From Clarias gariepinus (Eukaryota), in the NCBI RefSeq assembly GCF_024256425.1, contig NC_071115.1:12462746-12526745 (forward strand): DNA of 64,000 nt, read 5' to 3'. Positions 13,841-29,277 of the stretch are shown here, piece after piece. How positions within the stretch are numbered: the stretch's first letter is position 1; every line of letters begins with the position of its first letter. The notes beneath the pieces are model-generated. The model saw only the letters and a program-made list of their open reading frames with translations. It was not told where the DNA came from and made no database searches. A program made the position numbers and the translations under genes.

Positions 13841-13938
13841 CTGCTGCTGGAGCTCACACTCTGCTGGATTCTCCCCACTGGAAGACGTTTTTTTTCGTCT
13901 TCTTGCTTGATCCTTGTGAATGCTGAAATGTTGCTCTT
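13841..13938 (-). CDS. Locus A finger-region exon 3 (phase 1 acceptor cctcag|AA, donor CAGCAG|GTTGCA). Paralogous to 27688-27776.
   Basis: Polypyrimidine-AG acceptor at 13939 and GT donor at 13840. The peptide EQHFSIHKDQARRRKK... is collinear with the copy in locus B. Confidence 0.45.
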
Positions 13939-14015
13939 CTGAGGAATACACAAATGCTGTAAAACACTGTAAAAACTATTAAACGAACATATTAGGAATG
14001 GTTCCTCAGACTCAC

Positions 14016-14099
14016 CATGGTGGGTCATTCTGTGGTTTCGATAGCGATATTTCTGAATAAACCCGATATTACACTCGCTACACCAGTAAGGCCTCTCAC
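14016..14099 (-). CDS. Locus A exon encoding one C2H2 finger, (G)[27 protein letters not shown](G). It is 84 nt with phase 1 at both ends.
   Basis: Acceptor ttttgcttttctag|GT at 14100 and donor CATG|GTGAGT at 14015. Paralog at 27848-27931 has identical length and phase. Confidence 0.65.
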
Positions 14100-14231
14100 C
14101 TAGAAAAGCAAAATTATACTGGCACTAAACAACACCAATTTGTTATAAATTTGTATTATTTTTTATTTTATTATTATGTTTTAAAATTTTAAATAATATT
14201 TTTGTGGAAATATCTAATTGCTCATAAAGAC

Positions 14232-14397
14232 CTGTATGAGTGTACTCATGTCTGCGTAGGTGGTATGGACTGCAGAAGGTGGCGCTGCAGTGCTGACAGA
14301 TGTGCAGTTGTGTGTTGTGAGCTAAACCCTCCTCGTCATCTGAAGGATTTTCGATTACCGTTGACTTTGCATGTAAACAGACACAAATTCTAAATGA
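14232..14397 (-). CDS. Locus A exon encoding ...[53 protein letters not shown] (a C2H2 finger). The donor ACAG|GT is in phase 1. The 5' boundary is uncertain: either an AAG acceptor at 14398 or a TAG acceptor at 14390.
   Basis: Reverse-complement translation is collinear with 28027-28190, including the ICVC(L/F)H(A/T)K peptide. The plus-strand track ORF 14202..14393 is its antisense. Confidence 0.5.
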
Positions 14398-14784
14398 CTT
14401 GTATGCAAAAAGTTACGTTTATTAATATGAGGACTTTATAAAAAACTGCTTGACTGAAACCTAATTTATATAAATCCTGCATATAAATGTAGTTCACATC
14501 ATTTTTCTGTAACAACAAAAAAAAGTATTGAGAGTAAAAAGCGGGGAGATATTACATGGGTTAAAGCAAGCCCTATCTCATGCATGTGACCCCACACTAT
14601 ACAGCATGTAAAAACCAGATGTTCAAAATAAGCACAGAGCACAATATTAGGCTTAAAGGCTTAAAATCTAAAACAACCCACATTTAACAGTTATTAAGAT
14701 CTCTCATCTCAGACAATTTAAGATTTGTAGTAATTGGGGAAAAATATACCCTAGTTAATCTTTTTATTTTTATTTATCAGGATC

Positions 14785-15580
14785 TACAGTTGTGGCCAAA
14801 AGTTTTGAGAATTACACAAATATTAGTTTGCTGCTAAACTGCTTTTAAATCTTTGTTTCAGTTGTTTCTGTGATTTACTGAAATATAATTACAAGCACTT
14901 CATATGTTTCAAAGGCTTTTATCGACAATTACATGACATTTATGCAAAGAGTCAGTATTTGCAGTGTTGGCCCTTCTTTTTCAGGACCTCTGCAATTCGA
15001 CTGGGCTCTTAATCAACTTCTGGGCCAAATCCTGACTGATAGCAACCCATTCTTTCATAATCACTTCTTGGAGTTTGTCAGAATTAGTGGGTTTTTGTTT
15101 GTCCACCCGCCTCTTGAGGATTGACCACAAGTTCTCAATGGGATTAAAATCTGGGGAGTTTCCAGGCCATGGACCCAAAATTTCAACGTTTTGGTCCCCG
15201 AGCCACTTAGTTATCACTTCTGCTTTATAGCACGGTGATTTCAAGCATCACCCTTTTTTAACATGTCAAGTCTGCCATTCTAACCCAATCAGTCTGACAT
15301 AATGATCTCCAGCCTTGTGCTCGTCACCATTCTCACCTGAGTTAACAAGACGATTACTGAAATGATCTCAGCAGGTCCTTTAATGACAGCAATGAAATGC
15401 AGTGGAAAGGTTTTTTGGGGATTAAGTTAATTTTCATGGCAAAGAAGGACTATGCAATTCATCTGATCACTCTTCATAACATTCTGAAGTATATGCAAAT
15501 TGCTGTTATAAAAACTTAAGCAGCAACTTTTCCAATTTCAATATTTATGTAATTCTCAAAACTTTTGGCCATGACTGTAC
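14785..15580 (-). mobile_element. Internally deleted Tc1-like DNA transposon, ~0.8 kb, with ~30-bp TIRs (tacagttgtggccaaaagttttgagaattac).
   Basis: Terminal inverted repeats at 14785 and 15550-15580. Minus-strand ORF 14981..15244 encodes the DDE C-terminal part (PGNSPDFNPIENLW). Confidence 0.8.
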
Positions 15581-15893
15581 ATAACGATTGTGTGGACTTG
15601 ACAAACTCCTATAAACAAAGAAATAACCAGAAGAACAACAACAAAACACAGATTTCAACATGTAGTCATTTCCCCCAAAAAAGTTAACCAAAAACAAACT
15701 TGAAGTAAAAAATATTCTATAGGACTTTTTTTTAGTCTTTTAGTTTATTGATGGCTCTCTTAAGATCCCCCTCAGCATCCTAATGGGGTTGACATCGCCA
15801 TTCTACCCCCCTGATGATTTTCTTCTTCAGCTATTGAGATGTTGATTTGCTTTGTGTTCTTGGGATCATTGTCCTGTTGCATGAGTTCATCTC

Positions 15894-27687: not shown

Positions 27688-27776
27688 CTGTAGATGGAGT
27701 TTGTTCTCCACTGGGTTCTCTTCACGTTTTGTGTGCCTTCTTGATGGATCCTTAAATTCGCTTGACTGTGTCTCTC
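27688..27776 (-). CDS. Locus B finger-region exon 3 (acceptor ttcttcag|GA, donor CTACAG|GTTTCA). Paralog of 13841-13938.
   Basis: Splice sites read directly; the peptide ETQSSEFKDPSRRHTKREENPVENKLHLQ is collinear with locus A. Confidence 0.5.
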
Positions 27777-27847
27777 CTGAAGAACAAAACAAACCCTGTG
27801 AAACCCCGTAAAACTAGTTCATGAACGTATCAGGACCTTGGACTCAC

Positions 27848-27931
27848 CATGGCGCCTCATTCTGTGATTTCGATAGCGATATTTCTGAATGAAGCCTACA
27901 TTACACTCGCTGCACCAGTAAGGCCTTTCAT
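27848..27931 (-). CDS. Locus B C2H2 finger exon, (D)[27 protein letters not shown](G). It is 84 nt with phase 1 at both ends.
   Basis: Acceptor ttttgtag|AT at 27932 and donor CATG|GTGAGT at 27847. Confidence 0.65.
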
Positions 27932-28026
27932 CTACAAAAGCAAAACAAAACTGGTACTAAGCACACATTATAAATTAACAACGGCATGTTTTAAGGGGAA
28001 TAAATATTTAAATTCCGGTAACTGAC

Positions 28027-28190
28027 CTGTGTGAGTGTATTCATGTCTGCGAAGGTGATAGGGACTGCAAAAGGTAGCACCGCAATGCTGACAAATGTGC
28101 TGGTTTGAGCTCTGTGATACACTCTGTGCTTCATCCGAAGGGTTGTCCTTTATCTTTATTGGCTTTGTATGGAAACAGACACAAATTACA
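28027..28190 (-). CDS. Locus B exon encoding ...[56 protein letters not shown]. The donor ACAG|GTCAGT is in phase 1. The 5' boundary is approximate.
   Basis: Within track ORF 27968..28201. Paralog of 14232-14397. Confidence 0.5.
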
Positions 28191-28590
28191 GGTAAGCTCA
28201 ATGTAGTCCTAACAACCGCCCTTGGTCCTGTTTCTATTTTTATTTTTTATTTTTTCACATCATAAAAAAATCCAGTTGTTTCCCAACCAGTGATATACTA
28301 AGTAGTATACTTTGTCTAGTGTAAGAAAAAAGCCCGGTTTGACTAAACACCCCTTGTAGAAACAAATTTATAATATTGGGTTACAATTAATATTACTGAA
28401 GTAAATTAATACATTTAATGAGACGAGGCTGTGGCATGACACTTAAAATGTGCACACAGGTGCCTTATGAGCTGAAACTCTGTAAAGACTAATTATATAA
28501 CCAGTTGTTACTACTGCTGATTTCTTTCACTGTGAGTACACACTCCACACACTTTTAAGATTTCAAGTAAAAAGTTAAAACATAGTTTAC

Positions 28591-29277
28591 CCGAGCTCGA
28601 ATACGAGAGCTCCTCCTCCTACATGTATTCCCTAGCACATGTTCTTTCCGGCCGCTTTGATCAGCGACAGCCGTCTTGTCCTCGCTCTTGATGGTTTCAC
28701 TCTGATCATTGGCTGAAAAACTGCAGGTAGTGCTTTCGGGCTCATGATCGATTCCGACCAAGCTAGTGTCTGGAGTCAGATCAGTTTGCGATTCAAGATC
28801 AGCAAGCATTTTTTCACCAACCAACCCCATTTCTTCTGTGTCTGAAACATCAGTGCTAACAGATTCAACATTTGTTTTTTCCCATTTGGAAGTACATCTA
28901 TTCGAATGAGCAGATCTTGCTTGATTAGCTGGTAGAAGCTCTTCACTTGAAGGAATACACATATCCACATCTTTGTGCAAAAGGTTTCCCTTGGTCTGAA
29001 GCAGATCCAGCAGCTGTTTCCTTTCCTTCGACTTCTTGTCATAACTAAGAGCCTTGGCCACCTCTGGTTCTTTAGCATGTGCCGATAGAAGATGCCGTTT
29101 CATTTGGAGGGATGATTTCCTACAATATAAGCAGTAATGTCTTTTCTTCAGCTTTAATTTGGATTTTCCTTTCCTGGTTTTTAAACTCTTCCAGACATCA
29201 GCTATTTGTAAACCGCACTTCATCTCAGGAGCTTGGGAAGAAACCGGTGATGAATTTTTTCCTTCGGGTGATGTCTG
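28591..29277 (-). CDS. Locus B large exon, 229 aa. Contains CLYCRKSSLQMKRHLLSAH and AKEPEVAKALSYDKKSKERKQLLDLLQTKGNLLHKD and ends RRRSSRIRAR|GTAAAC.
   Basis: Acceptor ccccatag|CAG at 29278 and donor CGG|GTAAAC at 28590. About 93% nucleotide identity to 19381-19590 over ~200 bp. Confidence 0.6.

Follow-up and report, generated by a model that had tools for sequence, protein, structure and literature searches.

Gene A and Locus B

We analysed a 64,000-nt stretch of the Clarias gariepinus genome (GCF_024256425.1, contig NC_071115.1), hereafter the window, in which two loci coding on the minus strand, A and B, contain similar zinc finger exons. The two loci are related by a DNA-level duplication, in which exons 3–7 of gene A copy the 3′ exons of a long gene designated here as Z. 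Below, we describe both loci, the relation of locus B to gene Z, the age of the duplication, and the subsequent growth of introns.

Gene A is a separate, complete gene with seven exons, which encode a protein of 535 aa and span 9.7 kb (23382-13685, minus strand). The model was guided by tblastn searches with the proteins of catfish orthologues, and only canonical AG/GT sites were used, so that all its splice sites are of this type. The exons of gene A are as follows.

23193..23382, minus strand: exon 1; ATG at 23382, N-terminal domain MTKLDELNVFLSERL..., ends in phase 1 at a GT donor
19853..20022, minus strand: exon 2; 170 nt, AG/GT, matches aa 64-120 of Silurus P0001 (tblastn)
18746..19615, minus strand: exon 3, the large exon; 870 nt, phase 0-0, CCHH + CCHC double zinc finger module
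14232..14364, minus strand: exon 4; 133 nt, first C2H2 finger; 133 nt also in Tachysurus A
14016..14099, minus strand: exon 5; 84 nt, second C2H2 finger, phase 1-1
13841..13938, minus strand: exon 6; 98 nt, basic tail, no finger
13685..13747, minus strand: exon 7; HVAESSTGTSEPFDHFEERV followed by the stop codon, agrees with the C-terminal ends of Hemibagrus P0002 and Pangasius P0020

According to tblastn, exon 1 is 80–94% identical to the Silurus, Tachysurus, and Pangasius proteins, exon 3 is 64% identical to Silurus P0001 (E=4e-110), and the whole of P0001 maps onto 23382-13850. The best protein matches of the large exon are annotated catfish proteins. The orthologues of gene A are 'ZNF354A isoform X1' of Silurus meridionalis (P0001, 516 aa), 'ZNF281' of Hemibagrus (P0002), LOC113638042 of Tachysurus (P0003), and PDJAM_G00044720 of Pangasius djambal (P0020). 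The last one is the closest, with 94% identity in exon 1 and 73% in exon 3. The model constructed for Tachysurus A reproduces the LOC113638042 protein exactly; the exon sizes 190/170/.../133/84 are identical in this gene and in gene A, including exon 2, which is of equal length. One annotated transcript contains the large exon together with the finger exons in Silurus, Tachysurus, Hemibagrus, and Pangasius for the A type and in Hemibagrus XP_058267930.1 (P0030) for the B type. Thus, their joining in one transcript, which an initial annotation of this DNA had proposed, is observed in every annotated catfish orthologue.

The junction ...HVETQ/SRTIDNP in Silurus P0001 fixes the acceptor of exon 4 at 14364. 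The acceptors of the first finger exon had initially been placed at 14397 in A and 28190 in B; the correct positions are 14364 and 28162, and there is no AG in front of 28190. What had been taken for a third finger exon encodes a basic tail without a finger in both loci. In addition, the range first assigned to the duplication was too short, since exon 7 of A and exons 7 and 8 of B lie outside it. Nor did the locus A first described include exons 1 and 2, which P0001 matches at 23382-23188 and 20023-19853 (tblastn).

The two fingers of the A protein have the structure C-x2-C-x12-H-x3-4-H and are joined by a TGE(K/R)P-like linker, as read directly in the protein. Taken alone, A and B score 24.9 and 22.4 bits with Pfam zf-H2C2_2 (cut-off 40) and ~21 bits with zf-C2H2_4 (cut-off 27); the full Z orthologue P0030 passes Pfam (zf-C2H2, 109 bits). 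No KRAB domain was detected in the A protein by Pfam. The automatic names ZNF354A and ZNF281 are misleading for this short paralogue, the protein of which has two fingers. The match of the exon 1 peptide (23149-23400, minus strand) to Aminotran_1_2, with 22.2 bits against a cut-off of 19.7, is almost certainly a false positive, because the domain formed by this N-terminal peptide is short, charged, and probably helical.

Unit B consists of six open exons with 368 codons and canonical AG/GT sites throughout. They are numbered after their counterparts in A.

28591..29277, minus strand: large exon; 687 nt, phase 0-0, probably an internal exon of Z, in-frame TAG at the acceptor
28027..28162, minus strand: exon 4; 136 nt, first C2H2 finger; 136 nt also in Tachysurus B
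27848..27931, minus strand: exon 5; 84 nt, second C2H2 finger
27688..27776, minus strand: exon 6; 89 nt, tail, no finger
27518..27593, minus strand: exon 7; 76 nt, conserved in Tachysurus
27149..27183, minus strand: exon 8, terminal coding exon; TAA, stop position equal in Tachysurus

Relative to A, the B large exon is devoid of ~70 codons, including the CCHC finger.

Evidence for a DNA-Level Duplication

Positions 13500-20300 were queried against 27400-29600 using blastn. Five high-scoring segment pairs were found, all on the same strand and in collinear order.

19339-19585 and 28956-29205, same strand: 90% identity, E=5e-90
14009-14134 and 27841-27967, same strand: 86% identity, E=6e-34
14229-14389 and 28024-28187, same strand: 77% identity, E=1e-20
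Two more pairs, weaker, same strand: within the large exon

A self-comparison of the whole window revealed no competing matches for these segments. The nucleotide identity between A and B is 79% in exon 3, 75% in exon 4, 87% in exon 5, 71% in exon 6, and 65% in exon 7, and the proteins are 61% identical over the aligned positions. An exact match of 52 bp also links A with B (19413-19464 and 29030-29081). The splice phases are equal in the two loci (exon 3, 0-0; exon 4, 0-1; exon 5, 1-1; exon 6, 1-0), and exon 5 has a length of 84 nt in four of the four copies compared, namely A and B of the window and of Tachysurus.

Introns 4–6, all of which are short, are 72–77% identical between A and B (z=6.2, 10.0, and 5.9, respectively), and the observed score was reached by none of the 1000 shuffles. 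Since the introns resemble each other as well as the exons do, A and B arose through duplication of DNA, and neither a retrocopy nor a shared domain explains their likeness. The collinearity, the matching exon lengths and phases, and the unequal spacing of the large and finger exons had all been pointed out in the initial annotation, and the alignment and the gene models bear them out; intron 3 measures 4381 bp in A vs. 428 bp in B. Its description of the event as the segmental duplication of a ZNF gene body is correct as regards the duplication itself; however, A and B are not equivalent gene bodies, because B is without exons 1 and 2 and has an in-frame TAG at the acceptor of its large exon.

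Locus B as the Probable 3′ End of Gene Z

Locus B probably represents the last six exons of the ~28-kb gene Z (55217-27149), the orthologue of zebrafish zgc:66474, and not a separate gene. This conclusion follows from the lack of exons 1 and 2, the TAG at the acceptor, the collinear gene model of Hemibagrus, and the splice phases. No sequence similar to exon 1 or exon 2 was found upstream of B either in the window or in Tachysurus, where the interval between B and the preceding exon of Z, called here C-large, is only 1181 bp.

A library search with the 120-aa module of the A large exon retrieved the Hemibagrus wyckioides protein XP_058267930.1 (P0030; 'uncharacterized protein zgc:66474 isoform X3', 1677 aa), which matches only the shortened B-type module. 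This protein maps onto the window in order from 55217 to 27724, first as nine blocks and then directly as B, with an identity of 59–98% per block.

55217-55029, 52850-52344, 52097-51708, 48990-48787, and 47451-47236, minus strand: blocks 1–5
46460-45888, 38239-38024, 37940-37707, and 36797-35361, minus strand: blocks 6–9
29277-28627, 28174-28016, 27944-27834, and 27777-27724, minus strand: blocks in B

Amino acids 1295-1527 of XP_058267930.1 map to the B large exon, directly after the exon ending at 35442. Three exons of Z are of importance here.

55029..55217, end approximate, minus strand: first coding exon of Z; aa 1-63 of P0030, 98% identity
35442..36797, start approximate, minus strand: upstream exon of Z; phase-0 donor CAG/GTATGC, joined to the B large exon in the Hemibagrus model
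33565..35202, minus strand: C-large exon of Z; 1638 nt, phase 0-0, open, with an older copy of the CCHH+CCHC module (30% identical)

Phase 0 is found at the 35442 and 33565 donors and likewise at the 29277 acceptor. C-large, which the Brachyhypopomus protein P0026 includes and the Hemibagrus isoform X3 skips, probably represents a cassette exon. The C-large donor is conserved in Tachysurus, and the search for homologues of this exon yielded matches to unnamed open reading frames (ORFs) of Logan only. The Tachysurus gene call joins C-large with B and ends at base 8342, which is the stop of the modelled B exon 8. In the RefSeq models of Hemibagrus and Brachyhypopomus, the B-type exons are located at the 3′ end of a long gene.

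Several points weigh against the assignment of B to Z. The Logan contigs recovered, namely L001, L003, and L004, are all unspliced genomic DNA; the splice from Z to B is based on the gene models of other species and on splice phases. In addition, the C-large donor is directly followed by a conserved read-through stop and an AATAAA signal. Therefore, a short isoform ending at this place is possible, and C-large may serve as an alternative terminal exon.

The same stop and AATAAA could be expected if A and B were two independent and equivalent ZNF genes that originated from duplication of a whole gene body, B being the compact copy, as the initial annotation implied. All six exons of B are open and have canonical splice sites, and an ATG located 54 nt inside the B large exon could serve as a start if a promoter lay just upstream. 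Nevertheless, independence of B is unlikely: no sequence like exons 1 and 2 was found in the 1181-bp interval of Tachysurus or upstream of B in the window; the models of three species place the B-type exons in a long gene; and the phases of the Z-to-B splice are compatible. For annotation purposes, the exons of locus B should be attached to the upstream zgc:66474-like gene rather than called separately.

Age and Direction of the Duplication

The locus L002 of Tachysurus ichikawai, the one species used for comparison of the orthologous locus, is syntenic over the cluster, and the order C-B-A-D is preserved (D is the downstream neighbour of gene A).

L002 26-4717, window 37910-33330: C region
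L002 5581-7556, window 29294-27725: B
L002 9995-13632, window 23388-13641: A
L002 22806-23010, window 4025-3815: D exon 1

The B copies of both species have several derived characters in common: the acceptor, the QTSxE peptide, the ~70-codon deletion including the CCHC finger, an exon 4 of 136 nt, exons 7 and 8, and the stop position. They are also alike in the sequence type of exon 6. In A, an exon 4 of 133 nt and the A-type tail are common to C. gariepinus and Tachysurus. These shared characters, together with the synteny, indicate that the duplication predates the split between C. gariepinus and Tachysurus. Thus, the event is not recent, and it was apparently blurred by gene conversion.

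In the tree based on the region containing the module and the fingers, catfish A and B form one clade (200 of 200 bootstraps), which excludes the Z proteins of gymnotiform, cypriniform, and gonorynchiform fishes. Among the retrieved proteins, the short A-type architecture is found only in Siluriformes, and in the outgroups the module and the fingers are located at the end of a long gene. From this arrangement it appears reasonably likely that the Z copy (B) is parental and A is derived, and the copy would have arisen within the catfish lineage. It should be taken into account against this reading that the restriction to catfishes is based on a representative-clustered search and not on whole genomes. 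After the duplication, the Z copy would have lost the ~70 codons with the CCHC finger.

The synonymous divergence (dS) between A and B in the CCHH block of the window is 0.30, compared with 0.86 for the A orthologues and 0.53 for the B orthologues. For Tachysurus, the A–B dS is 0.14 in the CCHH block and falls to 0.055 in the 3′ half of exon 3, where A and B are 97–99% identical; the bagrid A and B group together in the tree. Probably, A and B continued to exchange sequence by gene conversion, as suggested by these distances and by the 52-bp exact match, although the corresponding tests use only ~40 synonymous sites. In the finger exons, the ratio of nonsynonymous divergence (dN) to dS, omega, is 0.05–0.16 in all pairs, the B orthologues included. 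Such purifying selection on the fingers makes both units look functional, and both of them seem to have remained open under it.

The near identity of Tachysurus A and B in the 3′ half of exon 3, the clustering of the bagrid copies, and the within-species dS lying below the between-species dS in the CCHH block would also fit independent, recurrent duplications in separate catfish lineages in place of one old duplication followed by conversion. This scenario is quite improbable, given that B-specific and A-specific characters are common to both species, that the gene order is identical in the window and in Tachysurus, and that in exons 4–6 the lowest dN (0.126) is observed between the A orthologues. 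One old duplication with subsequent conversion is, therefore, preferred.

The Logan contig L001 (SRR30889355_144877) has a length of 1955 bp. Its 5′ part is of the A type (window 20590-19339) and its 3′ part is of the B type (29205-28257), with 97.5% identity to each. The switch from A to B falls exactly in the 52-bp exact match between the two loci. The Logan assembler uses a k-mer of 31, which is shorter than this match, and an exact match of 52 bp can cause mis-assembly of short reads. L001 was, therefore, rejected as an A-5′/B-3′ hybrid gene: probably, it is a chimera of short-read assembly, and a real recombinant allele is the less likely possibility.

Growth of the Introns

The sizes of the introns in the window and in Tachysurus are given below.

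A intron 1: 3170 bp in the window, 1042 bp in Tachysurus
A intron 2: 237 bp in the window, 283 bp in Tachysurus
A intron 3 (14365..18745, minus strand): 4381 bp in the window, 406 bp in Tachysurus
A intron 4: 132 bp in the window, 103 bp in Tachysurus
A intron 5: 77 bp in the window, 81 bp in Tachysurus
Z intron before B: 4287 bp in the window, 1181 bp in Tachysurus
B intron 3: 428 bp in the window, 869 bp in Tachysurus
B intron 4: 95 bp in the window, 83 bp in Tachysurus
B intron 5: 71 bp in the window, 80 bp in Tachysurus
B intron 6: 94 bp in the window, 110 bp in Tachysurus
B intron 7: 334 bp in the window, 528 bp in Tachysurus

Apart from A introns 1 and 3 and the Z intron before B, all sizes are within ~2-fold of those of Tachysurus. 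Intron 3 of gene A grew from ~0.4 to 4.4 kb in the lineage of C. gariepinus, after the duplication, and at least three insertions of transposable elements account for ~2.6 kb of this growth, the length covered by the three elements recognisable in the intron. The Jukes–Cantor distance between the arms of the terminal inverted repeats (TIRs) is 0.10–0.15, which corresponds to at most 0.05–0.07 per arm, and the dS to Tachysurus of ~0.5–0.9 corresponds to roughly 0.25–0.43 per lineage. The divergence per arm is thus below that per lineage, which dates the insertions after the separation of the two species and, hence, after the duplication. Growth of the A introns by insertion of transposons after the duplication, as put forward in the initial annotation, is supported by both the 406-bp intron of Tachysurus and the young TIRs, and the Tachysurus orthologue polarises this growth better than the paralogue B does. 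The growth is not confined to A: the Z intron before B also contains a Tc1 fragment, and this intron and A intron 1 have likewise grown ~3-fold.

Two observations count against so simple a history of A intron 3. About 1.7 kb of the 4.4-kb intron has no recognisable element, vs. 0.4 kb expected; further decayed repeats are, therefore, likely there. Furthermore, a sensitive blastn comparison of the B and Tachysurus introns 3 with A intron 3 found nothing beyond ~45 nt by the acceptor, and so no empty insertion sites could be reconstructed.

If a long intron 3 were ancestral, with several kb already present at the time of the duplication, and the short forms had arisen by deletion, the ~1.7 kb could be old sequence, and the failure of the introns to align between species would be understandable. 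Such an origin is very improbable, considering that of the four homologous introns only that of gene A is long, the others measuring 428, 406, and 869 bp, and that several independent clean losses would be needed. Moreover, the 791-bp Tc1 copy described below keeps intact TA target-site duplications, and the TIR arms differ by only 9–13%, far below the neutral divergence from Tachysurus. Growth of an originally short intron is thus retained as the explanation.

Transposons in the Introns of Gene A

The three elements initially reported in A intron 3, i.e., a Tc1 deletion derivative, a Tc1 element of the inverted repeat–direct repeat (IR-DR) type, and a repeat similar to short interspersed nuclear elements (SINEs), are all present. 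The last of them may also be the tail of a long interspersed nuclear element (LINE).

14787..15577, minus strand: Tc1 internal-deletion derivative; 791 bp, ends TA/CAGT...ACTG/TA read directly
16613..18148, minus strand: Sleeping-Beauty-like IR-DR Tc1; 1536 bp, near full-length, degenerate; left end TA/CAGTGGGG
15885..16200, boundaries approximate, minus strand: SINE-like or LINE-tail repeat; 80–82% similar to 55504-55694

The 791-bp element is flanked by TA duplications (14785-14786 and 15578-15579), has TIRs of 43 nt that are 91% complementary, and contains a DDE_3 fragment (E=3e-8, 34.1 bits, above the cut-off). In the 1536-bp element, the right terminus is ~37 bp short, and the inverted arms of 119 nt are 86.6% identical; HTH_SB (3.7e-23, 81.5 bits) and HTH_Tnp_Tc3_2 (3.7e-16, 59.6 bits) were detected in it above the cut-offs. 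Its DR motif AAGTATTTRGTCA has just two exact occurrences in the window, at 16626(+) and 17977(-), and recurs with two mismatches at 16797(+). Thus, three of the four DR motifs are present, and the outer right one was lost with the shortened end. Neither Tc1 contains an intact transposase ORF, only ORF fragments of 70–87 aa being found, and both copies are dead relics.

Copies related to the SINE-like repeat, with the same 80–82% similarity, were also found in the Tachysurus locus L002 at 18.6-19.1 kb. The UnaL2 3′ element (RF00436) matches 15902-15955, but its 34.5 bits (E=0.0014) fall short of the gathering score, which is 55. ARAGORN detected no tRNA-like head in 15700-16500, and no Rfam match for a tRNA-, 5S-, or 7SL-type head was found; this piece may be 5′-truncated. 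Two adjacent copies of the repeat are located at 55504-55964, just upstream of the first exon of Z, and are 81% identical to each other (55539-55640 and 55863-55964). The ORF 21220-21525 of A intron 1 resembles a mariner HTH; Pfam does not confirm this.

Other mobile elements can be noted in the introns of Z. Tc1-like fragments are located at 29494-30120 and 30760-30945, just upstream of the B large exon, and the ORF 29721-29897 is 41–43% identical to other Tc1 pieces. At 43158-44720, there is a Tc1-sized element of ~1.56 kb with inverted repeats of 224 bp (88.8%), the peptides of which match other Tc1 pieces in the window. A pair of 236-bp inverted repeats (80%) at 38841-41775 surrounds an ORF of 270 aa (40188-41000, minus strand) without a Pfam match; this may be another transposon inside a Z intron.

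The CCHH/CCHC Module

The module encoded by the A large exon at 19202-19561 (minus strand) is ~110 aa long and consists of a CCHH and a CCHC finger. Its ligands C16, C19, H29, H34, C95, C98, H110, and C114 are invariant in 13 sequences. An AlphaFold model of moderate quality (predicted local distance difference test score of 69) places a CCHH finger of beta-beta-alpha fold, which has two additional helices, first, then a disordered linker, and last a CCHC finger of the same fold. No Pfam family corresponds to the module, no sequence relative was found in the PDB at E<=1, and a Foldseek search of the PDB with the model found only generic small zinc fingers, none of them at E<=1e-3. Judging from the type of fold, the module presumably binds nucleic acid or protein.

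The 120-aa module matches 1404 protein-cluster representatives, often in tandem, with up to nine copies per protein; among its holders are zebrafish si:cabz01015814.1, Astyanax, and the sea slug Elysia. This uncatalogued module is the one item of wider interest here. Its distribution over fishes and one mollusc and its third copy in the C-large exon, 30% identical, could suggest that the likeness of A and B reflects merely a widespread repeated domain, possibly borne by transposons, and no local duplication, but this is practically refuted by the similarity of the introns, as five consecutive exons and three introns have equal order and phases and 65–90% nucleotide identity.

Gene D and the 5′ End of Gene A

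The downstream neighbour of gene A, gene D, contains a copy of A exon 1.

3824..4019, minus strand: D exon 1; copy of A exon 1, GT donor kept

The nucleotide identity between A exon 1 and the copy at 3809-4024 is 92.6%. In Tachysurus, the counterpart of D is the 75-aa 'si:dkey-93n13.2'. No more exons of D were recognised at 1-3823 of the window, and L002 extends 450 bp past D exon 1. Exon 1 of A and exon 1 of D are 92–93% identical within each species and 87–88% identical between orthologues. Their similarity stops at the exon edges, and the regions upstream of A and D are conserved but different. Gene conversion would account most simply for this pattern, as for that of A and B. Outside exon 1, no similarity between A and D was found in the window, and Tachysurus shows a single weak match of 117 bp (63%, E=5e-6). 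The genes lie on one strand in the order Z(B)-A-D, and A has a D-like exon 1 and Z-like exons 3–7.

Gene A may be a catfish-specific chimera of the 5′ end of D and the 3′ end of Z, which also carries the uncatalogued CCHH/CCHC module; the gene order agrees exactly with such an origin, and we consider this joint reading possible. In this case, A would be the product of one tandem duplication that reached from the 3′ exons of zgc:66474 to the 5′ exon of the si:dkey-93n13.2-like gene. A borrowed promoter and N-terminal exon would thereby be fused to a borrowed tail with the module and the fingers, and gene conversion confined to exons would keep A exon 1 similar to D and A exon 3 similar to B.

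Between A and D, at 6329-9164 (minus strand), there is a non-LTR (long terminal repeat) retrotransposon with long ORFs (RVT_1, 130 bits; Exo_endo_phos, 38.6 bits). Upstream of the cluster, the same strand carries the terminal exon of a conventional C2H2 ZNF gene (59548-60498, minus strand) with ~5 tandem fingers (zf-C2H2, 85 bits).

Comparison with Known Systems

On the whole, the locus is best explained by a partial duplication, with B as the 3′ end of Z and A as a separate gene, by gene conversion between the copies, and by lineage-specific growth of introns; we consider this combination likely. Partial gene duplication, apparent exon-limited gene conversion, and transposon-driven intron growth occur here side by side, and the comparison with both a paralogue and a syntenic orthologue polarises each process. 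The case is thus tidy and clean but ordinary, and the understanding of these processes remains unchanged.

Transposon-driven intron growth is well known in teleosts, e.g., in the zebrafish lineage (PMC3205604). The locus described here likewise shows a ~10-fold difference between orthologous introns, with transposons filling much of the excess. Unlike the work on the zebrafish lineage, our comparison covers a single locus, polarised by an orthologue and a paralogue, and makes no genome-wide claim. In channel catfish, no repeat class is more abundant than Tc1, which makes up 8.8% of the genome and has a mean divergence of ~12% (PMC5953449). The Tc1 copies of A intron 3 share with IR-DR Tc1/mariner elements the TA sites, CAGT termini, long inverted repeats, paired DR motifs, and remnants of transposase domains; they differ in that one copy is internally deleted, whereas the other has a decayed ORF and a shortened right end.

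The clusters of KRAB-ZNF genes in tetrapods and FiNZ-ZNF genes in cyprinids are also similar to this one, which is a ZNF cluster on one strand sharing an N-terminal exon; the likeness extends to evolution by local duplication and sequence exchange. FiNZ is a 28-aa domain described as cyprinid-specific (PMC10547256). Genes of the KRAB and FiNZ type combine an N-terminal effector exon with a long finger array in one exon, whereas gene A is divided into seven exons, carries only two fingers, which lie on different exons, and contains a non-C2H2 module, and targeting of transposons is not indicated for its protein.

Among the short paralogues of catfishes, gene A shares the architecture and the sizes of exons 1, 2, 4, and 5, and its exon 3 is 57–73% identical to theirs. 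Tachysurus A spans 3.45 kb vs. 9.7 kb for gene A, and introns 1 and 3 make the difference.

The closest known systems for Z are the zgc:66474 orthologues of H. wyckioides (XP_058267930.1), Brachyhypopomus gauderio (LOC143508450), and Chanos chanos (LOC115829780); a full-text search by gene name found no papers on zgc:66474. These genes share with Z the N-terminal domain, scattered single C2H2 fingers, the CCHH/CCHC module, and the terminal pair of fingers distributed over two exons. In the last module exon, the CCHC finger is lost in catfishes and kept in the gymnotiform protein. The number of modules also differs: there is one in Chanos and Myxocyprinus, and there are two in catfishes and in the gymnotiform.

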